Below, piece by piece: positions 2,580 through 42,823 of a DNA stretch of 64,000 bases (position 1 is its first letter; the number at the start of each line of letters is the position of its first letter). This DNA is from an uncultured Hormoscilla sp. (lineage in GTDB: Bacteria > Cyanobacteriota > Cyanobacteriia > Cyanobacteriales > Desertifilaceae). The DNA is taken from assembly GCA_963921275.4 (NCBI GenBank), contig OZ001293.3, positions 608,001 through 672,000 on the forward strand, written 5' to 3'. The notes beneath the pieces are model-generated. The model was not told the origin of the DNA. It saw only the letters and a program-made list of their open reading frames with translations, and did no database searches. The translations under genes and the position numbers were made by a program.

Positions 2580-4565
2580 TTGAATGTTCTCCGCTCATGC
2601 AATCGTGGAAATAACATCCCTACCGCAGAATAGCTGGTCATCCTAACCACCTTGCTAACTTCAAATGACACAGGGTAAACCCTACAGGGTCTTGAGGACA
2701 GGTCGAATCCTCAAGTAAGTATGAGGCAACAAAGACCGAACGGAGGGTAGAAGATGAGGCAGGAAGCGAACGCTGCTCTGTAATGGAGTGGATAAGGGTT
2801 CAAAATTTGCCCTTGACCGAAAGGAATAGCAGACTTGCCTTGGGTCTTATACGAGAGAGACAATTGACAAGGAAACTTAACGGAGTGATAAGTTAGGTGT
2901 CAAACAAATGTTTGATAAACGGAAGCAACGGACAACTACTGGAGCCAGATTAATTGGAAAAAAGCCGATAATATTGTTAATAATTTCCCTCAATAAATCC
3001 TGCCCGAAAACTTGGTCAAGCAAGTACGTAACCGGCAAAAACTGTTAATAAGAAGCCGAGCAAACCTATTGCTTAGTGTCAGAGAAATTACTCAAAAAAG
3101 GAAAGAGCACCCCAGCTATTGATAAGGAGGTGATAGAAACACCAGGGGATAGAGTCAAGCTTGCCAACAACTGGGAAATGCCGAAAGCCAATCCCACTAA
3201 GCGGGTCCATATCCCGAAAGCTAATGGCAAGAAACGTCCTCTCGGTATCCCAACCATGAAGGATAGAGTCGCACAAGCTATAGTCAAAAACTCATTAGAA
3301 CCCGAATGGGAAGCAGTGTTTGAAGCCCACTCATACGGATTTCGGCCAGGCCGCTCGTGCCACGATGCCATCGAGCAATGTTTCATTAGATTGAGTAAAG
3401 GCAGAGACACTTGGGTTCTAGACGCTGATATTAAAGGATTCTTCGACAACATAGCCCATGAAGCCATTATCAAGAAAATTGGCTCGTTTCCATATAGCGA
3501 CTCAATCAAGAGATGGTTAAAATCTGGATTTATCGACAAGGGTAGTTATAGCCCAACTGAGACAGGCACTCCTCAAGGTGCTGTAATAAGTCCTTTACTA
3601 GCCAATATCGGACTGCACGGGTTAGAAGAATTTATCAAACAAGTTAACCCCTCGCTAGGCATCATCCGGTATGCTGACGATTTTGTCGTCACATCCAAGG
3701 ACAAAGAATCCTTAGAAACAGTGCTGATCCAGCTAAAGCAATGGATGTCTGAAAGAGGACTGGAAATCAGTACGGAGAAAAGCAAAATAGTTCACAGAAA
3801 TGAGGGGTTTGACTTCCTGAGCTTCAACCTCCGCCATTACGGCGGTAAACTTTTAACCAAACCTCAAAAGTCCAAAGTCCTTGACTTTTGAAAAAAGATA
3901 AGTGACGAAGTTAAGGAAAAAGTTGATTGGGCTCAAGAAGCTATAATAAACGAATCCAATTCTCCGAGGTTTTGCTAACTCCTAGTGGGGTAAGCAAAGA
4001 AGCCTTCAGCTACATCTAGTATCGATTGTGGCATCTTCCGTTGGGCTTTACGTCGGCATCCCAACAAATCAAAAACATGGGTCCTTAATCGTTACTTTGG
4101 AAAATGTAAGGGACGTAGCTATAACTTCGTAACTGATATAAAGGGTCGGAAAAAATTCCGGGATCTCTATGATATCAGTAGTAGGTCAGGCACATCAAAG
4201 TTAAAGGGACCGCAATGACGACCCAGCACTCCAAGAATACTGGTTCAAACGCAATAAACGGGCCAAATTACTGGGCAAAAGGCTCAAAATATGAAAGGGT
4301 TGCCCAAGAACTGGAATTGTCCCATTGGCAATGAACCTCTATTCAACGGAGAAAAGATTGAGACTCACCACATAGTACCTGTAAAGCAAGGTGGTTCGGA
4401 CGACACTGAAAACCTTGTCCATTTACACGCAGCGTGTCACAAACAGGTACATTCAAAATTCAAGAAAGAAAGGCTTGAAGTAAGGTCTTAGCCGTATGAG
4501 GGGATAACTCTCATGTACGGTTAGTCGGGGAGGGGAGAGAGGTGACTCTCAAACCTTACCCTCTA
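2580..4565 (+). mobile_element. Group II intron with degraded RT/HNH ORF, 5' end missing
   Basis: RT ORF followed by DV AGCCGTATGAGGGGATAACTCTCATGTACGGTT (4490) and a DVI ending near 4565. Confidence 0.85.
2908..4491 (+). pseudogene. ltrA: Group II intron reverse transcriptase/maturase with HNH domain, multiple stops and frameshifts
   Basis: KRPLGIPT, SYGFRPGRSCHDAI, GTPQG, RYADDF (3076-3891). HNH motif THHIVP...NLVHLHAACHKQVH (4291-4491). Confidence 0.9.
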
Positions 4566-4940: not shown

Positions 4941-4969
4941 TACTCCTGTCAGTTATATTAGATATTAAA

Positions 4970-7618
4970 CTAAGCCAGAGGGTCACCCCTCCGACTCGTC
5001 TCCAAAACCGGACTTGATACTTTCGCATCATCCGGCTCCTCAGTAACGCCACCCTTGTCATGGGTACGGCTGTGACTACCATCGCTGGCAGTCTTTATAT
5101 CGTGGCAATGTTTGTGTAGTAACTGTAGGTTGTCGTACTGGTTTTTACCCCCTAATGAGAGGGGCTTGATATGGTCAACTTCCCACTTGTCACCATCCAT
5201 AAACGTTAATCCGCATTGTTGGCACTTTCCCTTTTGTCTCTTGAGTAGCGTTGCTACCCTCTTATTTAGCTCGGGGCTTTTGCCTAATCTCGTACTCCAA
5301 TATGTAAGGTTCCCGTCATATGGGCTTGCTGTACCTTTCACTTTTATGTGCCTGATTATCTCAGTTTCGGAGTATCTGTACAGCGTTATTTTTTCCTCTC
5401 CTATTTGGCACCGGAATCGCCATTTACCGTCCTCACTCAGGGACCAGTACTTACGAGCTATCCAATGACTGGATTTATTGGGATGTCTCCTTTTTGCCCA
5501 CTGCCAGAGAATGGTCCATAGGTAGTGGTCCATGTAGCTGTATGTTTCTTTACTTACCACTGTCCTATAATAGTTTGACCATCCCCGTATTATCGGGTTT
5601 AGCTTACTTATTAAGGCTGCTTGTGGTGCTGCTTTATGGCTGGCCACCATTTCTGATAGCCGTTCTTTATGCTTCCCTATGGACTTATTACTGGGTTTGA
5701 TTAGGGTTTTGAATCCTAGGGGTGTTCCGTTGGTTGACTTGCCGGTTCTGTATTTACCTATCTCATATTGCCTTACTTTGAAACCCAGGAAGTCAAACCC
5801 CGGGCTTTCTCCTTTTAGCGTATGAGCTATTTTTGTCTTCTCGGCTTTCAATTCTAGCCCTATTCCCTTTAGCCATTCTGCCACCACTATCTGCGCTCTG
5901 TCTATCATTCCCCTATCTTCATGCATTACCACAAAGTCATCAGCATACCTGACTACTGTCAGCTTTTGCTTTTCTTTTTGTGTCCTGGCGAGTTCCTTTA
6001 CTGCCTCCTCTAGTCCATGTAGGGCTATGTTGGCTAGTAGTGGTGATATGACTCCCCCTTGGGGTGTTCCCGCTTCGGTTGCATGCCATTCTCCTTTGTC
6101 TATCACCCCGGCTTTTAACCATGCCCGTATCTGCTTACGGATTGGTGACGTTGTATTTAATTTTTTTATTAGCGCTTTGTGGTCAATCTTATTGAAACAT
6201 TTTGCAATATCGGCATCCAATACCCACTTGGGTTTATATCTGATGCTGTTAAATATTGCCTTGATTGCATCGTGGCATCCCCGACCCGGTCTGAATCCAT
6301 AGGAGTTCCCTTCCATGTACGCTTCCCATTCGGGTTCGAGCGCAATCTTGAGGAGTCTGTGCGATTCGTTCTAGCCTAACGTGGTCAAACACGGAACGCT
6401 AGCCCGGTTTCATTAGCCGGGAACTCTGACCGCATGGGGGTTAAATTCCCCTCCCCCCAGGTACGGGGGTGACACCGGTCCTCGGTGCTACGAAGCGACA
6501 TCATCGTGGTGCTAAGCGAGGACTCAAATGTAGGATAACTGGCAGCCTAAGCCGGTGACGCCGCTAGGAAAGATATCCAAGGTTAGAGCAGGCAAACATG
6601 TGCAAGCCTCGTTATAAGGAACCAGCGAAATAAGGCTATATGCGCTGGCCTAAAAAGGAAATGGTAGCTAGTATTAGTTTTAGACTCTGGCTAATATAGT
6701 ACTCAAATAGCTCCCGGGGTATAGTGTGGACCTAAAGGTATCGCGAAATGTTGTTAGGGAACGAAGTAACCTCTCGTGTGCTGTCCATCAGGACAAGTTA
6801 GATGTTAAGCGCAAGCCACGGGGGGAGGGATGGCCCAAGAAGCGAATGCCCGGGGTAATTCCTGGGATAACATCTACAGTAATGTAGATGATGCTGGGTA
6901 GCCAGCGCTGACGTGGGTCGGTGATACTAGGAAGCTGCTGGAATGAGTAATCCTAAAAAGCCACGGAACTAATCCGAAACGCAAGTGGAGGATAAGGTAT
7001 GGATAACTGGTAAAACTGACTTGAAAATGGTGATACTAACGGTTATCAGAACAACCACTCGCTAAACCAGGAAAGGGAAGAAAAGACAGGCGGCAAGGGC
7101 TAACGGAAGTAATTCCTATTAAGTCTACCTATGAAAAGGGCCTAGTACCCAGTAGCCGGATGCGGTGAAAATCGCAAGTCCGGTTCCTCAAGGGAGGGTC
7201 GGGAAGCGATTCCCGGCTCGACCCCATCCCTGTGTCGCACGGTCGTACATCGTTGGTATTCCTAAAGGACGCTTCTCCTCTCTCCCCGGCTTTGGTATCC
7301 ATACACGACGTGTAGGTTTGGCCTTGTTTGAGATTTCAATCCGTCCTACCAGTTCTGAGCGTTGCTTTGGGGTCAGTGCTTTTACACTGTCCACTCCCGC
7401 CGTCTTCTTTCCCTGGTTGTCTTGAGTTACCTGTCGTACCGCTAGACTTTTGGCAGCCCGGGATTTTACCAGTAACCTTTGGAGTCTGCGAACTGGTCGC
7501 TTATTACGCCTTCCATTGCCGCTCTGTAAATTCGCTTTTGCAACTTAAAGACTACCCGCTCCAGCCGAGGCCAGGGGGTATCCTTTCATTCATTCATCGA
7601 TTCGGAAATCGTGCTCAT
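4970..7618 (-). pseudogene. ltrA: Group II intron RT-X-D-HNH protein, split by an antisense intron, with an early nonsense codon and a frameshift
   Basis: Removing 6359-7229 restores ...MYDRATQ|RLLKIALEPEWEAYMEGNSYGFRP. YADD and HNH (VDHIKP...HKHCH) are present. Confidence 0.92.
6359..7229 (+). mobile_element. ORF-less group IIB intron (871 nt), copy 1
   Basis: GTGCGATTCG start, DV AGCCGGATGCGGTGAAAATCGCAAGTCCGGTT, end CTCGACCCCATCC. Same sequence at 40340-41210. Confidence 0.92.
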
Positions 7619-7670
7619 GACCTGTGTATTGCTACTTACAACTTTACAATTAACGTTACCGTGAGGGCGT

Positions 7671-8613
7671 GGTCGGGGTCGAGCTGGGAATCACTTCCCA
7701 ACCCTCCAAGAGCGAAACCGGACTTGCGACTTTCACCGCTGGGGCTTGTCCTTAGGCATATCATCATCAATAATTAGGTCACCCCGTTTCCCCTTACCCT
7801 CTGTAATTTTACCCCTTATGGTCAATCCTATTGGACCGTTAATGATTTCAGCTCCGGAAGGTTCGCGGAGGGTAGTTCAGCAAACCGGTCTAACCGCTCT
7901 TTACTAACATTTCCCCATTCCTGATTTATCGGGGCTCTGAACTTTACCCGGCTGAGACTCTAGTCCATATTCATACTTTTGGATTTCTCCTAAGTTTTGC
8001 GACATATTAGGGCTACTTTCACCAAAGGCTTCTTACCATATCCGTCCGACGTCAGCTTATCCACGGGCATTACCCCGGGCATTTGCTTCTTAGGACATCC
8101 TTCCCCTCGTGGCTTGCGCTATGCGCTCCGCGCACGCTACGCGGACGTACATCTAACTGGTTCGGCCCCGTTGAGCCGAACTGCACACAAGAGGTTACTT
8201 CGTTCCCTGGTATCATTTCTCGATGCTTTTAGGTTCCTGCTATACCCCGGGAGTTCTTCGAGTGCGATGCTAGTAAGTACAGATTACCAACACTAACTAC
8301 CATTTCCCTTTTGGGCCAGCGTATCAGCCTTATTCCGCTGGTTATAGGTGACGAGGCTTACACAGGTTCGCTTGTTCTAACCATGAACATCTAACAAGCG
8401 CGGTGTTGCTAGCTTAGGCTGCCAGCTACCCTACATTTAAGTCCTAGCGGAGCACCACGGCGATGTGACTCCGCAGCACTAAGGACCGGTAGTACCCTCG
8501 ACCCCCCACACCTGAAGAGAGGGAATTTAACCCCCATGATAACCAGAGTTGTCTAGCAAATGAAACCAGACCAGACTTTCACCGTCACCGGTTTACGCCT
8601 GAACGAATCGCAC
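7671..8613 (-). mobile_element. ORF-less group IIB intron with damaged DV, nested in the outer intron RNA
   Basis: 5' GTGCGATTCG at 8613 and 3' CTCGACCCCGACC. The 5' strand of DV is replaced near 7740. Confidence 0.85.
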
Positions 8614-9259
8614 CTGCATATCCTATCCATTACAGACAGGCGTTGGCTTCTCCTCGAAATCTTTCCCAGATACAACCTGCCTTCCGGAGAGCAGATGTTG
8701 CGCCTGTGGTGGCTACTCAACCTATTGACCGGTGGTTGAGAGTATGTACCTGGTTTACTTCGTTCCTCTAGATGATTGGTCGTAGTTTTAGGTGGACTCT
8801 ATATGCCGGGTTTGTTGTCAGTGCTTATTGGTCGAATTACAACCGCCAATGACCTGTATCCTTTCCCTTTTGGGCCAGCGTATCAGCCTTTTCGCTGGTT
8901 TGGTATAACGACACTTATGAGCCTTTGCTTTTGCTCACCATGACTACTTGCTTGACGGTAACCGGTTTAAGCTGCCAGTTATTGCGCCTTTCTCTCCCGC
9001 TTTACGGATTGATGCCATCGCTACCGTCGGAAGAGTGCTGTCACTCCTGCACCTGGAGGGGTGGGCTTTCACCACCATCATCTAAAAGTTGTCAGGGCTA
9101 ATGGAACCCTGCTAGTGGTCCCTTTTTTTGACATGTGTCAAGTCATTTTACAATAAACGAATCGCACTATAACAGATATAATCATAGATGTCAAGCGAGC
9201 CGACGATCGCATCTTATGTTCCCGATCTCTAACAAGCAACAACTAACAACCAATAACTG

Positions 9260-9459: not shown

Positions 9460-9518
9460 CTTGTAATTTATCGCAACAAAATTAAAATCTACTTAAGAAA
9501 CAGGGATCTCCCATGGGA

Positions 9519-10104
9519 GAGGAACGAAGTAACCCCCGTGGTGCTGTCCTCATTTGGACAAGTCAGATGTGCGTCCGCGTAGCGTGCGCGCAGCGCATAG
9601 CGCATGCCCATGAGGGGAGAGATGGCCCGAGAGGCTAATGCCTAGGCGGTGTCTGGAGCATGCCTTGGTGTCTGGAGCACACCGAGTCCTTCAGGACAAG
9701 AGTGTGCGGAAGACGCCAAAGTCCTTCAGGACAAGAGCATGCGGAAGACGCCGGTAATGCCTATGGATACGCAGACGCGGGTCGGTGATACTAGTAAACT
9801 ATTGGTACAAGTAGCTCTAAAATGTCATAAGCCCATTTACAGCGTTAGCGAAAGCGAGTTGAGGATTGAGGAATGTTTAACTGGTAAAACGGAGTGTTAA
9901 ATGGTGATACTAAAGGTTATCCGGCAGCTCCACTCACCAACCAGGAAAGGGGCGGACGTGCAAGTAGTAAGGGACAATGGGAGTAATCCCTAGTAATCCT
10001 ACCCGTGAAAGGGGCCCTAGTATCCAGTAGCCGTGTGCGGTGAAAGTCGCATGCACGGTTCCGAAAGGGAGGGTTGTCCCGCGAGGGACAGCTCGACCCC
10101 GACT
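9519..10104 (+). mobile_element. 5'-truncated ORF-less group IIB intron
   Basis: GGAACGAAGTAACC core, DV AGCCGTGTGCGGTGAAAGTCGCATGCACGGTT, end CTCGACCCCGACT. Confidence 0.85.
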
Positions 10105-10256
10105 TGCATTTAGCCTGTGCGGAAAAGATAAGGGTTGGTTATTTTATTACTTGTGACGATCACATGATTAAAAGGTATCGGGGATATCTGATTGTCATAA
10201 ATCCTACTACATTTGCTAATGATGCTATTAACACAGGAGGCGAAAATGACAAGTAA
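10104..10256 (+). pseudogene. C-terminal part of a PIN-domain toxin, truncated at the intron
   Basis: LHLACAE...YFITCDD...VINP PIN motifs begin at the intron 3' end. Confidence 0.65.
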
Positions 10257-13272: not shown

Positions 13273-13402
13273 TGTGGTCATAAGTAGTTGATAGCCGGGT
13301 GCATCTGGTGATACATGTATATAGCCCGCGCAGGCGGGCTTTGTTCATGTAGCCGGACCCTTTAGGGTGAGGGATCGAGCAAGCTCTGTATTGCGCATCG
13401 CT

Positions 13403-26751: not shown

Positions 26752-29134
<2,383 letters not shown>

Positions 29135-32166: not shown

Positions 32167-33259
32167 CCGTTCGTAGTAATTAGGGGTCGAGCTGGGAATC
32201 GCTTCCCAACCCTCCCTTTCGAACCGTGCATGCGGTTTTCATCGCACACGGCTACTGGTTAGTTGGACCTTGTCATTGGCAGGATTACTGGGGATTGCTC
32301 CCTTTGTCCCTCTTCTTATGCAGTTTTTCCCCTTTATGGTAGTCGATAGGACTGTTTCGTATCTAGCTCCGGAAGGTTCGCGGGGGGTATCCAGGAAACC
32401 ACTTATACCGCTCTTTGCTAACATTGCCCCTGTCTCGTCATTAGGGGACTTTTCAAGTTTTACCCGGCTAGAGTTTTAGTCCATATTACAATCTAGGATT
32501 TCTCCTGATTTTTGGTACGTATTAGGGATACTTCCACCCAAGATTTCCAACTATATCCGACCCACGTCTGCCGGTACATTCCTGCACCACTTATACAAGG
32601 AGTTACCCCTGTCCTTTGCTTCTTGGGCCATCTCTCTCCACATGGCTTACGCTTATCATCTAACTGGTCCCTATCTCCTGACCACCGGTCGATAGTCGAG
32701 TAGTTATGGACAGCACACGTGGAGTTACTTCGTTCCCTGGTATCATTTCACGATGTTTTTAGGTCCCTGCTTTACCCCGGGAGCTACTTTGAGTGTGATG
32801 TTGGCCATATGCAACAGCCAACACTAGCTACCATTTCCTTTTTAGGCCAGCGTGTAAGCCTTCTTCCGCTGGTTACACATAACGAGGCTTTCACAGATTC
32901 GTTTTCCTAACCATGAGCATCTTTCCTAGCGGAGTTGCCGACTTTGGGCTGTCAGCTATCCTACATTTAAGTCCTTGCTCCGCACCACGGTGATGTCACT
33001 CCGCAGCACTAAGGACCGGTGTCACCCCCACACCTGGGGAGAGGGAATTTAACCCCCATGATGACCAGAGTTACCATATTGAGCCTGATTATGATTAGTT
33101 TTGGTTCTAAACATTCAGTCCAATTTTGGCTCGGCTTTTCCGTGTTTGTACAGGTTAGGCCGAAACGAGTCGCACAACACTTTAGTGTTTATCTCCGTTC
33201 GTAGTAAACACTTTAGTGTTTATCTCCGTTCGTAGTAAACACTAAAGTGTTTATCTCCG
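32167..33259. repeat. 31-bp tandem palindromic repeat (CCGTTCGTAGTAAACACTTTAGTGTTTATCT, ~3 units) split by an intron; single copy at ~58507
   Basis: Half unit 32167-32178 plus units at 33176-33259. Confidence 0.8.
32179..33175 (-). mobile_element. ORF-less group IIB intron (997 nt)
   Basis: 5' GTGCGACTCG at 33175, DV AGCCGTGTGCGATGAAAACCGCATGCACGGTT, end CTCGACCCCTAAT. Confidence 0.9.
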
Positions 33260-38515: not shown

Positions 38516-39235
38516 GACGACGACTCGCATCTCTGGGACGATCCAAAATACAGAGGAAGAACCTCTAGCTAGCGTACCTATTGAACTGGGCGATTTGCAG
38601 ACGGTGACGGCGGCAGATGGTTCCTTCACTATTGAAATTACGGGTACGCTATCAGACGATACCCTGAAGGTGCGCGGGGAAGAAATAGCCGGAGACCTTA
38701 CCTACCCGTTCGTTGCGGAGAAGTTGCCCTGCTGCTAGGACGGGACCCGCTGACGGGAGTTAATAATGTCGTCAGTCGTCCGATATTCCTGCCGGCGATC
38801 GATATAGACAATGGGGTAAAAATTGACCCATCTGTGGATACGATGGTGACGACAGATGCTATCCCTGGGGCGGAAGTGTTCGTGGCAGCGGGAACCCTGG
38901 AAAGTATGGATGGCAGTCTGTTTACGGGCCAGTTGAGTATTACGGAAGTGCCGCGAGACCTCACCCCCGCAGCCCTACCAGAAAATCTGTTACCGGATGT
39001 CGTGGTAACTATTCAACCGGCAGAGATAATCTTTACTACGCCAGCACCCCTGTCGATGCCCAATGAGGCGGGCTACGATCCGGGAACGGAGATGGACCTG
39101 TGGTCAATTAATCCAGAAACGGGCGAATTTGAACGGGTGGGAACTGGTGAGGTAAGTGCGGATGGCAGTACGATTAATACGATAGAAGGCGGTATCCGCA
39201 ACAGTAGTTGGCATTTCTTTGTGCCATTTTTATTA

Positions 39236-39325
39236 TTAGAAGTGCCGACTGACCCAGAAGATAACCCGCGCAACCCAGATTTAGAAGTGCCGACTGACCC
39301 AGAAGATAACCCGCGCAACCCAGAT
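39236..39325 (+). repeat. 45-bp in-frame tandem duplication
   Basis: LEVPTDPEDNPRNPD occurs twice. Confidence 0.9.
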
Positions 39326-40339
39326 GATGAATGTAGCTGTTGTAAGGTAACGGCACCAGGGACTTCAGAGGTAGAATTGCATTCAGGTGCGGTGTTGGAG
39401 TCTCACGACTTGGTGCCTTATCAGTCTTTGGGCGTGAGTCGGGGTTTAACCCTCAGCTACGATTCTCTGCGGGCAGACCCCAGACAAATTATGCATTTTG
39501 GCTATGCTAACGTACAGGCGGACCAGAATCGCCGCTTGGTGGCCGAACTGGCAATCAGTCGGGGCGATTTTGAGTTCCAAGTACCGGGGTTTGCAGGGGG
39601 TGAGTACGGACTGGATGGGGGCGAACATTTTTGGTCCCTGCCCGGGAATGGCGGACTGGCGGATGCGGCGCTGCAAGCGGATATGCGTTTTCTATCTTCG
39701 GGTCGCTACGACTACGAACTGACGAGGGGACTGCTACAGTTGAATGATGAGAATCTGTTTAGCGGTTCGACTTCGACCAGTTCGGGACGGCTGCTGCATG
39801 TCAATAGGATCGACAGTCCCTTCGGTAATGGTTGGGGACTGGCGGAATGGCAGGAATTGGTGGAAAATCCCGATGGTTCGGTCCTGCTGATCGATGGAAA
39901 TGGTGGGGAACTGCTGTTTGAAGCGTCAGCAACAGGAGATGGTTACGAGTCTCCTCGTGGGGACTTCTCAACTCTGGAACGCTTGCCAAATGGGACTTTT
40001 CAGCGGACGATGAAGGACCGGACGGTCTACAGCTTTAACGGACAAAATCAGTTGGCGCGGATGGTAGACCGCAATGGGAATGAAACTGAGTATGTTTATA
40101 CGGGAGGCCAGTTAAGCAAGATTGTTGACCCGGTCGGACTGGAAACTACCTTTACCTATACTAATGGCAGGGTGACGGCGATCGCGGACCCAGCGGGGCG
40201 GGTGACTCTGTTGGAGTATGATGCAGCAGGAAACTTAACTAGGATTACTGACCCGGATGGCACTCGGCGGACTTGGGAGTACGATGCTAACAACCACATG
40301 ATTGCTGAGATTGACAAGCGGGGTAATCGAGAGGAGACT

Positions 40340-41210
40340 GTGCGATTCGTTCTAGCCTAACGTGGTCAAACACGGAACGCTAGCCCGGTTTCATTAGCCG
40401 GGAACTCTGACCGCATGGGGGTTAAATTCCCCTCCCCCCAGGTACGGGGGTGACACCGGTCCTCGGTGCTACGAAGCGACATCATCGTGGTGCTAAGCGA
40501 GGACTCAAATGTAGGATAACTGGCAGCCTAAGCCGGTGACGCCGCTAGGAAAGATATCCAAGGTTAGAGCAGGCAAACATGTGCAAGCCTCGTTATAAGG
40601 AACCAGCGAAATAAGGCTATATGCGCTGGCCTAAAAAGGAAATGGTAGCTAGTATTAGTTTTAGACTCTGGCTAATATAGTACTCAAATAGCTCCCGGGG
40701 TATAGTGTGGACCTAAAGGTATCGCGAAATGTTGTTAGGGAACGAAGTAACCTCTCGTGTGCTGTCCATCAGGACAAGTTAGATGTTAAGCGCAAGCCAC
40801 GGGGGGAGGGATGGCCCAAGAAGCGAATGCCCGGGGTAATTCCTGGGATAACATCTACAGTAATGTAGATGATGCTGGGTAGCCAGCGCTGACGTGGGTC
40901 GGTGATACTAGGAAGCTGCTGGAATGAGTAATCCTAAAAAGCCACGGAACTAATCCGAAACGCAAGTGGAGGATAAGGTATGGATAACTGGTAAAACTGA
41001 CTTGAAAATGGTGATACTAACGGTTATCAGAACAACCACTCGCTAAACCAGGAAAGGGAAGAAAAGACAGGCGGCAAGGGCTAACGGAAGTAATTCCTAT
41101 TAAGTCTACCTATGAAAAGGGCCTAGTACCCAGTAGCCGGATGCGGTGAAAATCGCAAGTCCGGTTCCTCAAGGGAGGGTCGGGAAGCGATTCCCGGCTC
41201 GACCCCATCC
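40340..41210 (+). mobile_element. ORF-less group IIB intron (871 nt), copy 2, sense orientation in the Rhs gene
   Basis: Same as 6359-7229 by eye. Removal gives GNREET|TYDFAGR. Confidence 0.92.
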
Positions 41211-41928
41211 ACCTATGATTTTGCCGGTCGCGCTGATGCAGCGGTAGCTAAGGATGGTTCTCAGTTAGATTTTGACCAGTCCAGGTGCAGGGACTGTACG
41301 AACCGGGTGAAACTATTGACCCCCTGGATGCCCCAGTGGCGTTCCAGTTGGGGGCTGTGGAGTCTAGTTATGTGGATGCAAATGGCAATACGATCGTCTA
41401 TACCTTAGACCAAGCGGGGCAAATTGTCTCGGCGATGGATGAAGTCGGGGCGTTACCGACGGTGGTCCGGAATGAGGAGAATCTCGTGACTAGCAGGACG
41501 GTGCCCGAGGTAATGTTACCTCCTTTACCTACGATGAGAATGGGAATGTCCTGAGTAGCGTCGATATCGGTCTGGTTAGCGGTTCGATCTCCGTACTGGG
41601 GGAAGTAGACGAGTTTACCTTTGAGGGAACGGCGGGACAATGGCTGTACTACGATGGTCTGGGTAATGACGTTAATATAGATGTCCAACTGCTCAGCCCT
41701 AGCGATGACATATTTAACGTCAGAAATAGGAGATTCTTGAGCCTGACGGAGACAGGTACATATCGCTTGGTTCTGAGAGGAAACACGGGCGACTACAGTT
41801 TCCGGTTGTTAGATGTGGCGGATGCTCCGACTTTGAATTTGGGTACCATTGTGACGGACAGTCTGGGCCCGGGCGCGGAAATGGATATCTATAAGTTCCG
41901 GGGCACTGCAGGTCAGCGGATCCTAGTT

Positions 41929-42823
41929 GGGCGTGTCATCAGTTAAGCCAAACAACAGTAGCAGCCAGGTAGATAGCACCCAAGAAATTCTGAGCCCTCT
42001 TATCGTAACGGGTGGCAATGGCTCGATATTGCTTGAGTTTGGCAAAAAAATTCTCAATCAAATGACGTGCTTTGTATAGATATTTGTCATAACGGCGTTG
42101 TTCTTTTCGATTGGATTTAGGCGGAATCACAGGTTCGCATTGCTGGGCTTCAAGACGTTTCAAAACCCGTTCGTCAGCATCAGAAGCTTTGTCTGCGAGT
42201 AACGCATCAGCCTTAATATTATCAAGTAACACATCAGCCCCTTCCAAATCGTGAGCTTGACCGGCTGTTAAATGAAAACCCGTTGGGTTCCCCAATGCGT
42301 CACAGGTCGCGTGAATTTTGGTACTCAAACCCCCTTTACGGCGTCCGATGGCTTGGTCGCAATCTTTTTTTTGAGCACCTGCACTATGTTGATGAGCCCT
42401 TTATATCGTGGCATCAATCATCGCATATTCGTTATCGGCATCGGACGCAAGTACCTTGAATACTCTTTCCCATACCCCGGATTTTGACCACCTACTATGG
42501 CGCGTATGAATTACCCTCAAGTCCCCAAATCGCTCGGGTAAGTCCCGCCAAGGTATCCCAGCTCTATATCGATACAAGACAGCATAGACAAATAAGCGGT
42601 TATCCTTAGCTGTCCCCCCCACATAACCCTCCCGACCTGGCAATAGGTCCCTGATTCTCTCCCACTGGTCATCTCTTAAAGCATAGCGACGCATTTCTCA
42701 AATTCTCCTGCTCTAACCTTTACCCTCTTAGATCACACCAATATATCCTGGTTGTCAACTCAATCATCTTGTTATATATTTTTGGTGGGGACCCATATCG
42801 TTAATCTAACTGATGACACGCCC
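41929..42823 (-). mobile_element. IS5-family (IS427-like) element, full length; orfA has an in-frame TAA, orfB 41939-42328
   Basis: 17-bp terminal inverted repeats GGGCGTGTCATCAGTTA. TKIHATCDALG...RHLIENFFAKLKQYRAIATRYDK, with an A-rich slippery site. Confidence 0.93.

Follow-up and report, generated by a model that had tools for sequence, protein, structure and literature searches.

Probable recent multi-copy spread of an ORF-less group II intron in the genome of an uncultured Hormoscilla

The movement of open reading frame (ORF)-less group II introns by the protein of a related intron is already an established mechanism. In Thermosynechococcus elongatus, ORF-less TeI3 introns, amounting to 17 copies in six families, are accompanied by TeI4 “driver” proteins, of which TeI4h selects an A at position -15 and no base of the 3' exon, according to Mohr, Ghanem and Lambowitz (2010, PMC2882425). 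Group IIB introns such as EcI5 usually form a pair between exon-binding site 2a and intron-binding site 2a (EBS2a-IBS2a) at position -14, and 6MEC is the T. elongatus Th.e.I3/T.el4h particle, as stated by Monachello et al. (2021, PMC8643678). Across 1,790 representative bacterial genomes surveyed, the maximum was 101 introns per genome, in Arthrospira platensis (Miura et al. 2022, PMC8919778). Here we analysed a window of 64,000 nucleotides from an uncultured Hormoscilla sp. (GCA_963921275.4, contig OZ001293.3, hereafter C1; C1:608001-672000 of the 7.03-Mb assembly), which contains two copies of an 871-nt element. From its sequence features, we classify this element as a non-autonomous ORF-less group IIB intron of the chloroplast-like class. 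It is very probable that this intron has spread through the genome in a recent burst, using the reverse transcriptase (RT)/maturase/HNH protein of related introns.

The features of the two copies are given below, with positions counted from the first letter of the window, exon positions counted from the insertion point, and a slash marking that point wherever it appears in a sequence.

6359..7229, plus strand: copy 1, ORF-less group II intron of 871 nt, GUGCG...CCCCAUCC
40340..41210, plus strand: copy 2, sequence as in copy 1
6344..6358, plus strand: target (5' exon) of copy 1, with A-15 at 6344, IBS2 TCTTG at 6346-6350 and IBS1 GAGTCT at 6353-6358
40325..40339, plus strand: target of copy 2, with A-15 at 40325, IBS2 TCGAG at 40327-40331 and IBS1 GAGACT at 40334-40339
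6682..6687, plus strand (40663-40668 in copy 2): EBS1 AGACUC, in the loop of a predicted hairpin, pairing with -6..-1
6615..6619, plus strand, intron positions 257-261 (40596-40600 in copy 2): EBS2 UAAGG, pairing with -13..-9, assigned from the logo and covariation

Pairwise comparison showed that the two copies are identical at 871/871 positions, and their longest open frame encodes 58 aa, which bears out the original prediction of two identical ORF-less introns in this window. Outside the copies, the shared sequence amounts to 2 nt (CT) leftward and 0 nt rightward, and the 200-nt flanks are 29% and 26% identical without gaps, which is chance level. The two copies are therefore not a segmental duplication, the alternative through extended shared flanks that the prediction itself had raised. 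They are preceded by GAGGAGTCT (6350-6358) and GAGGAGACT (40331-40339), respectively. As predicted, the EBS1 loop pairs at 6/6 positions with the GAGTCT of copy 1 and at 5/6 positions with the GAGACT of copy 2. Together with EBS2, the target of copy 1 forms 11/11 pairs, two of them G-U; the target of copy 2 adds 3/5 pairs in IBS2 to the 5/6 in IBS1, and its +1 base is an A at 41211.

The ends of the mobile unit were read from unoccupied sites. For 133 copies (the 138 full copies of the genome minus five tandem members), 14 nt of the left flank and 14 nt of the right flank were joined and searched for in the genome, which revealed an exact unoccupied 28-mer elsewhere for 27/133 sites, in 10 or more different contexts. 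With the unit moved by 2 nt, empty 28-mers fit in just 3/133 cases, copy 1 being among the three; at copy 1 both end models coincide, because the intact paralogues read GAGTCC/CTGTG where the window reads GAGTCT/. The empty sites thus fit the 871-nt model, and the mobile unit is GUGCG...CCCCAUCC. Moreover, deletion of 871 nt, unlike that of 869 nt, restores both host reading frames, giving ..DRATQ/RLLKIALEPE.. for copy 1 (minus strand) and ..REET/TYDFAGR.. for copy 2. The 5' end GUGCG, located at 6359-6363 and 40340-40344, fits the group II consensus GUGYG.

A BLAST search of the genome with the 871-nt query gave 672 alignments, 138 of which span positions 1-871 at >95% identity and together (138 x 871 nt) make up 1.7% of the 7.03-Mb assembly; this genome-wide count, along with the flank logo of 103 sites described below, supplies two of the checks that the original prediction had proposed. 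The copies were aligned with MAFFT and their variants counted against the window copy as master: 61 copies have no difference, 31 have one, 28 two, nine three, and nine between four and 12, and 120/138 lie at most two positions from the master. Among the variant types, 93/108 are private to a single copy, transitions number 68 against 17 transversions, and the two-base variant 830-831 TC>GA marks 21/138 copies. The copies are distributed over both strands (64 plus, 74 minus) with a weak GC skew, and no clear pattern of replication-strand bias was found along the chromosome. A simple domain V pattern matches the genome 354 times and its reversed-sequence control 0 times, and 146/354 matches are the exact domain V of the 871-nt family. 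The fraction of identical copies (61/138), the fraction within two positions (120/138) and the empty 28-mers for 27/133 sites indicate that the spread is recent, which supports a very recent burst of the 871-nt lineage to at least 138 full copies.

Among 40 related genomes searched, long matches occur in just the four of the same genus; the best of them is 91-92% identical and has another EBS1 and EBS2, which fit its own flank. The exact 29-mer of the EBS1 hairpin has 0 occurrences among the matches listed outside the own genome in a species collection, in a scan that may leave out own-genome records. Among the genomes searched, the AGACUC/UAAGG lineage was found only in this one. As a lead, a RibD-like protein of the genome groups with clusters in which Cyanobacteriota is the most frequent phylum. 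Sequencing runs X4, X5 and X7 of other studies carry the 871-nt intron at an identity of at least 99%, and the five loose-end flanks looked up from these runs (of many) all adjoin introns in this genome. The three runs thus probably contain the same organism and are uninformative on presence/absence polymorphism for that reason.

To describe the target, we built a flank logo from 103 non-redundant sites, with tandem members and related contexts removed (Hamming distance >15 of 50 kept). Its consensus is A(-15), CCTTA (-13..-9), G(A/G)GT(C/T)T (-6..-1) and A(+1). Upstream, the counts are A 75 at -15, C 69 and T 20 at -13, and C 60 and T 31 at -12, followed within IBS2 by T 69 at -11, T 63 at -10 and A 64 at -9. 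IBS1 is composed of G 91 at -6, A 64 and G 35 at -5, G 77 at -4, T 80 at -3, C 75 and T 23 at -2, and T 90 at -1. Position -14 is weakly A (A 47, C 32, T 19, G 5), the +1 base, where IBS3 would lie, is A in 80/103 sites and G in 13/103, with no EBS3 located in the intron, and past +1 there is no conservation. The target sequence that we propose for the 871-nt intron is AACCTTnnnGAGTCT/A.

The logo mirrors the two RNA loops. The substitutions tolerated in IBS1 are G-U wobbles, namely C or T at -2 opposite G, and A or G at -5 opposite U. The EBS1 loop changes in step with -6..-1 across 10 or more sister lineages (TGCACT with AGTGCA, ATTTTC with GAAAAT, GTCCAC with GTGGAC, GGGAAT with ATTCCC), and its stem has compensatory changes. 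The segment that covaries with -13..-9 in sister lineages is CGUUAUAAGGAAC, with AACCC facing GGGTT, CCCTT facing AAGGG, CATCC facing GGATG and TGTAG facing CTACA, which places EBS2. A UAAGG in the hairpin loop AAAUAAGGCUAUAUG (intron positions 268-282) had been the first EBS2 candidate; it was dropped, as this loop stays almost the same in lineages whose targets differ. At the place expected for EBS2a, two positions 5' of EBS2, the intron has a U and then an A. Counting Watson-Crick and G-U pairs over the 11 positions of EBS1 and EBS2, at least 9/11 pairs form at 72/103 sites, compared to 0.25% of 200,000 random genomic positions. The complementarity seen at the two window sites, which the original prediction had suggested checking in other copies, extends to other members of the family. 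Domain I of the intron itself holds the words CATGGGGGTTAAATTCCC (6433-6450 of the window, intron 75-92), which are the target of a sister lineage with EBS1 GGGAAU (e.g. at C1:1428685), so that other ORF-less introns serve as targets for some lineages.

The insertion contexts were sorted by a proxy, namely the longest frame from stop to stop that spans the intron-removed site, with a threshold of 150 codons, and one recurrent target lies within the intron.

46/138 copies: low-copy DNA without a long frame across the site
33/138 copies: long frame, intron on the same strand
19/138 copies: long frame, intron on the opposite strand
14/138 copies: other repeated DNA
14/138 copies: RT ORF of an intron, antisense
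2/138 copies: RT ORF of an intron, sense
5/138 copies: nested within another family copy, at position 768, TTAAGTCT/ACC
5/138 copies: members of head-to-tail arrays
7112..7127 of the window, plus strand: internal look-alike target ATTCCTATTAAGTCT/A, intron 768/769, which holds a nested copy in five other family members

Including one two-copy array, the copies antisense in RT genes amount to 16 in all. The hosts of sense copies include RibD-like and SulP-like proteins (each entered 19 codons before the frame end), a response regulator/Hpt protein and a DUF3352 protein, and those of antisense copies include TPR/glycosyltransferase, Hpt, SpoIIE phosphatase, Ser/Thr kinase and GAF proteins. Six copies occupy one site in a DUF4347/LRR/cadherin-like paralogue family of about 20 members, and seven copies lie at AACCTTTACGTGTCT/GATTAT in an RT gene. 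Head-to-tail arrays without spacer were found at C1:5447656-5450268 (three copies) and C1:824934-826675 (two copies). Within each array, the copies are told apart by private or sub-lineage variants, the first copy of the triple array belonging to the GA sub-lineage and the rest not. They are therefore separate insertions, which suggests that the same 5' junction was entered repeatedly and that the arrays did not arise by local duplication. As an occupied site keeps IBS2 and IBS1, a new copy could enter at the old 5' junction. One further full copy (C1:3454542-3455412) has the left flank of the copy at C1:1028772 and a right flank that reads from intron position 769 onward, as if an ordinary insertion had recombined with a nested one.

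The catalytic domains of the element were located by their similarity to Rfam models, which match the two copies at 7151-7227 and 41132-41208 (RF00029, domain V/VI, 44.4 bits against a cut-off of 40); five more RF00029 matches lie elsewhere in the window.

7154..7185, plus strand: domain V, starting with AGC and with a GAAA loop (RF00029 44.4 bits; RF04356 alignment)
7191..7229, plus strand: domain VI, with candidate branch A at 7221 and the 3' tail AUCC (Rfam alignment)

The minimum free energy fold has hairpins that present EBS1 and domain V/VI (z = -2.9), with two extra stem-loops directly after the 5' end, and sister lineages differ in the upper stem of domain VI by changes that compensate each other. 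The mobile unit ends in CAUCC, 2 nt past the terminal AU (7226-7227) of the Rfam model and hence not in the usual AY. The bulged A7221 of the Rfam alignment is the candidate branch point, with 8 nt separating it from the end of the unit, one above the usual number. In sister ORF-less lineages, 76/97 copies read GAC+TA, with two bases beyond a canonical-looking GAC, and GAC+CA and AGC+TT also occur (e.g. C1:14956-15035); because these lineages too share two bases past the canonical-looking end, the shift of the 3' end may be common to all of the ORF-less clade in this genome. Exact empty 28-mers for the sister ORF-less lineages numbered 0/97 in the genome search. In the ORF-bearing introns of the genome, the 3' end is AAU, and the flanking sequences differ from the next base on.

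A tblastn search with the 29 long intron-RT frames of the genome gave no match with E < 0.3 in the 871 nt of the element. At the nucleotide level, a 32-nt remnant of the start of an intron-RT ORF lies in domain IV (6954..6985, plus strand), with ATG changed to AAG. Its local alignment score is 34, compared to 19.1 +/- 2.5 (maximum 31) in 200 shuffles, and blastn-short aligned it at 21/24 identities, with the MSRNL-type RT genes nearest. This remnant may be a leftover of the binding site of the protein. No remnant of the C-terminal part of the ORF was found at the protein level.

The original prediction had stated that no intact RT exists in the window, and that an intron-encoded protein would act in trans. 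Indeed, tblastn found just two RT frames in the window, one broken by a stop and one split by copy 1. The whole genome has 139 intron-RT frames, of which 29 are at least 540 aa long and 23 of these are without internal stop; the intact protein whose identification had been recommended could thus come from 23 open frames outside the window. Five of six RT frames checked have RVT_N, RVT_1, GIIM and HNH above Pfam cut-offs, and the sixth and most divergent one (L040) has HNH at 21.1 bits against a cut-off of 21.4. The best solved relative is 6me0_C (also 6mec), with E = 1.4e-113. The ORF-bearing introns start like the ORF-less ones, with GUGCGAUUCGUU followed by two stem-loops. Judged from these sequences, the helper protein of the 871-nt intron would be supplied in trans by related introns. 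Priming by target cleavage is expected, given the available endonuclease domain, and the absence of strand bias (64 plus, 74 minus) agrees with it without being a proof.

We propose that the 871-nt RNA would be spliced from transcripts with the aid of the RT/maturase/HNH protein of ORF-bearing introns located elsewhere in the chromosome. The resulting RNA-protein particle would then reverse-splice into DNA that pairs with EBS2 UAAGG and EBS1 AGACUC and carries an A at -15 and +1, and the inserted RNA would be copied into DNA. The burst would have gone mostly into imperfect sites on either gene strand, including RT genes, the intron's own domain IV and the 5' junctions of resident copies. The splicing, the helper and the priming route in this scheme are what we infer.

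Several observations weigh against this scheme. Copy 2 pairs at only 8/11 positions of EBS1 and EBS2, all 11 positions pair at just 4/103 sites, and 156/162 genomic sites that satisfy the wobble-allowed IBS2+IBS1 pattern are unoccupied, so that pairing alone does not decide the insertion site. The 3' end is not AY, a departure from a defining feature of group II introns, and its splicing and RNA ends are predicted from the DNA, as a look-up of public runs listed no RNA run containing 39840-41710 of the window. ORF-bearing introns match the 871-nt ribozyme only in short blocks (251-303 and ~790-828, at ~85%), and the helper is therefore not nameable by ribozyme similarity. In long frames, the excess of sense over antisense copies is weak (33 vs 19, binomial p = 0.07), and the copies in sense within genes pair no better, with a mean of 9.03 vs 9.05 of 11; given this weak excess and the equal pairing across contexts, selection for splicing is not visible, which fits a burst too recent for sorting by selection. 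Gene conversion or assembly polishing could moreover exaggerate the identity of the copies. The original prediction had spoken of recent retrohoming: its recent mobility of a protein-less intron, with a protein that would come in trans, is supported, and the term “retrohoming” is less apt, as most sites are imperfect. Since only 4/103 sites pair fully, “retrotransposition to look-alike sites” is the better term, and the data support mainly retrotransposition rather than homing.

Other explanations for the many copies were weighed against the recent burst. Many copies might be passengers of duplicating DNA, such as host introns and paralogous genes, which would account for the recurring flanks (seven copies in the RT-gene site, six in the cadherin-like family and five in the intron itself). 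This is unlikely, since there are 103 mutually unrelated contexts and the inner copies in recurring contexts carry different private or sub-lineage variants; passengers would make up at most a minority of the copies. Alternatively, the insertions could be old and kept alike by gene conversion, a concerted evolution under which identity would not date the spread. The variant 830-831 TC>GA in 21/138 copies is the state of sister lineages and could be a product of conversion, but the star-like variant pattern (93/108 types private), the lack of the lineage in any other searched genome (the best of the 40 relatives, at 91-92%, has another EBS1 and EBS2), the 0 hits of the EBS1-hairpin 29-mer among the matches listed outside the own genome and the existence of empty paralogous sites all argue against old insertions, which we regard as quite improbable.

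Two further explanations seem very hard to sustain. The multiplicity and identity could be an artefact of assembly, with the repeat over-placed or homogenised by polishing, to which consensus sequences of 871-nt repeats are prone. In run X1, however, the word depth is ~5,560-6,000 on the intron contigs vs 46-48.5 on two flank contigs, a rough artefact check only, as word depths do not translate into copy numbers and X1 could be the very sample behind the assembly; in addition, each copy has unique flanks. If the element moved by a transposase, or with no protein encoded by an intron, it would be no retroelement at all. Such movement is in line with the lack of any encoded protein in the 871 nt, yet the element lacks terminal inverted repeats, its target is not duplicated, and removing 871 nt restores the empty sites exactly; its sites are complementary to two RNA loops, and it possesses domain V/VI of a group II intron. 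We thus retain the recent burst of an ORF-less group II intron, helped by the protein of its relatives, as by far the most probable explanation.

The hosts of the two copies and the other introns of the window are as follows.

4964..6358, minus strand: downstream part of the host of copy 1, with the 3' piece of an RT/maturase/HNH ORF (4970-6358) and domain V/VI (4964-5040)
7230..7394, minus strand: upstream part of the same RT ORF (...IPTMYDRATQ/)
38636..40339, plus strand: host of copy 2, an open frame with RHS repeats on the same strand as the intron
41211..41405, plus strand: continuation of the RHS frame after copy 2 (..REET/TYDFAGR..), open for 65 codons
~9500-10105 (plus), 27187-28022 (plus) and 32179-33060 (minus): sister-lineage ORF-less introns, 75-80% identical to the 871-nt element, with domain V/VI above the Rfam cut-off

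Copy 1 lies antisense within the RVT_1/GIIM/HNH frame of another group II intron and splits it; because of this orientation, splicing cannot restore the RT frame. The host (4964-9160, minus) is an ORF-bearing group II intron with two guests, the second being an ORF-less intron of another lineage that lies in sense at ~7675-8538, just upstream of the RT frame. In intact paralogues of the host (e.g. C1:1140739-1142442), an ORF-less intron also ends ~130 nt before the frame. The RT ORF of this host, like all full-length RT genes, extends through domain V into domain VI (4970-5040, minus), so that the catalytic helix itself codes for the last RT residues, ..EEPD-KVS-PVL-TSR-GD-LA. As for copy 2, the RHS frame ends after 65 codons and a weak RHS-repeat match resumes in another frame at 41494-41943; the host gene may therefore also be broken downstream. 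The second RT of the window (3052-4491, plus) is stop-broken and consists of RVT_1 (3076-3888) and a piece of HNH (4291-4488), followed by its own domain V/VI (4487-4564). No maturase domain was found in this frame among Pfam domains, and it is unrelated to the other intron RTs, at only 34% identity; the region 3052-4564 probably represents an intron of a different class that has decayed. The CRISPR direct-repeat family RF01356 has a single match in the window, at 13322-13345 (minus), with 36.6 bits against a cut-off of 35. Elsewhere in the assembly, contig C3 (31,420 nt) has 17.6% G+C, compared to 47% for the chromosome, and may be foreign, either a contaminant or an unrelated replicon.

What sets this genome apart is the scale and freshness of the spread, with 138 near-identical copies of one lineage and at least 354 domain V motifs. 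Ordinary genes are hit on both strands, and few signs of purifying selection can be seen so far. How an intron invasion is tolerated by a genome, which protein drives it and how loose the target pairing can be thus become testable questions in a bacterium, as does the possibility that non-autonomous introns hold back their helpers through the loss of RT genes. For the design of gene-targeting vectors, there is practical interest in a ribozyme this compact and mobile, whose targeting rules are simple and readable. A bolder reading, which we offer tentatively and consider doubtful, is that of a hyperactive lineage of relaxed specificity caught in the middle of its burst. It would have a 3' splice site 2 nt past AY and a branch A one position further from the end than usual, insert at one to three mismatches on either gene strand, and parasitize its own helpers through the 16 antisense copies in RT genes, which are unspliceable. 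If this were true, the burst would carry its own brake, and the organism would be a natural bacterial model of the genome-wide intron invasion proposed for early eukaryotes.

Among non-autonomous retroelements, short and long interspersed elements (SINEs and LINEs) stand in a similar relation, in which a short protein-less element outnumbers, and depends on, protein-coding partners. Unlike in that relation, the target of the 871-nt intron is chosen by RNA-DNA pairing via a ribozyme. The TeI3/TeI4 introns are closer: according to PMC2882425, they share with the present family an ORF-less IIB intron in many copies at EBS1/EBS2-matching sites, ORF-bearing relatives in the same genome that encode proteins with RT and endonuclease (En) domains, the insertion into other introns (twintrons), and a preference for A at -15 (here 75/103) with nothing selected past +1 in the 3' exon. 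Moreover, the RT found here matches the solved T.el4h protein with E = 1.4e-113. The differences lie in the 138 near-identical copies of one lineage here compared to 17 TeI3 copies, and in the prevalence of imperfect sites, where retrohoming after EBS divergence is argued to dominate for TeI3. Many insertions here are within genes and on both strands, whereas few introns of T. elongatus are in genes; the words “tandem” and “antisense” are absent from the text of that paper. Compared to TeI3 as described there, just a 5' ORF remnant was detected in the present intron, and its unit ends 2 nt past AY.

With EcI5 and the IIB1 and IIB2 introns, as presented in PMC8643678, the 871-nt intron has in common the 5-bp EBS2-IBS2 pairing at -13..-9 and a U-A at the expected place of EBS2a, and with IIB2 the two extra stem-loops right after the 5' end. 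It departs from the EcI5 rule at position -14, which is only weakly A (47/103, with C 32), and shows no clear sign of strict Watson-Crick pairing between EBS2a and IBS2a. In the literature searched, we found no description of hundreds of group II introns in one bacterium. The genome resembles the intron-rich cyanobacteria of the survey PMC8919778 in its expanded chloroplast-like-class and ORF-less introns, and differs from the survey maximum of 101 introns in its 354 domain V pattern matches, 146 of which belong to one lineage.

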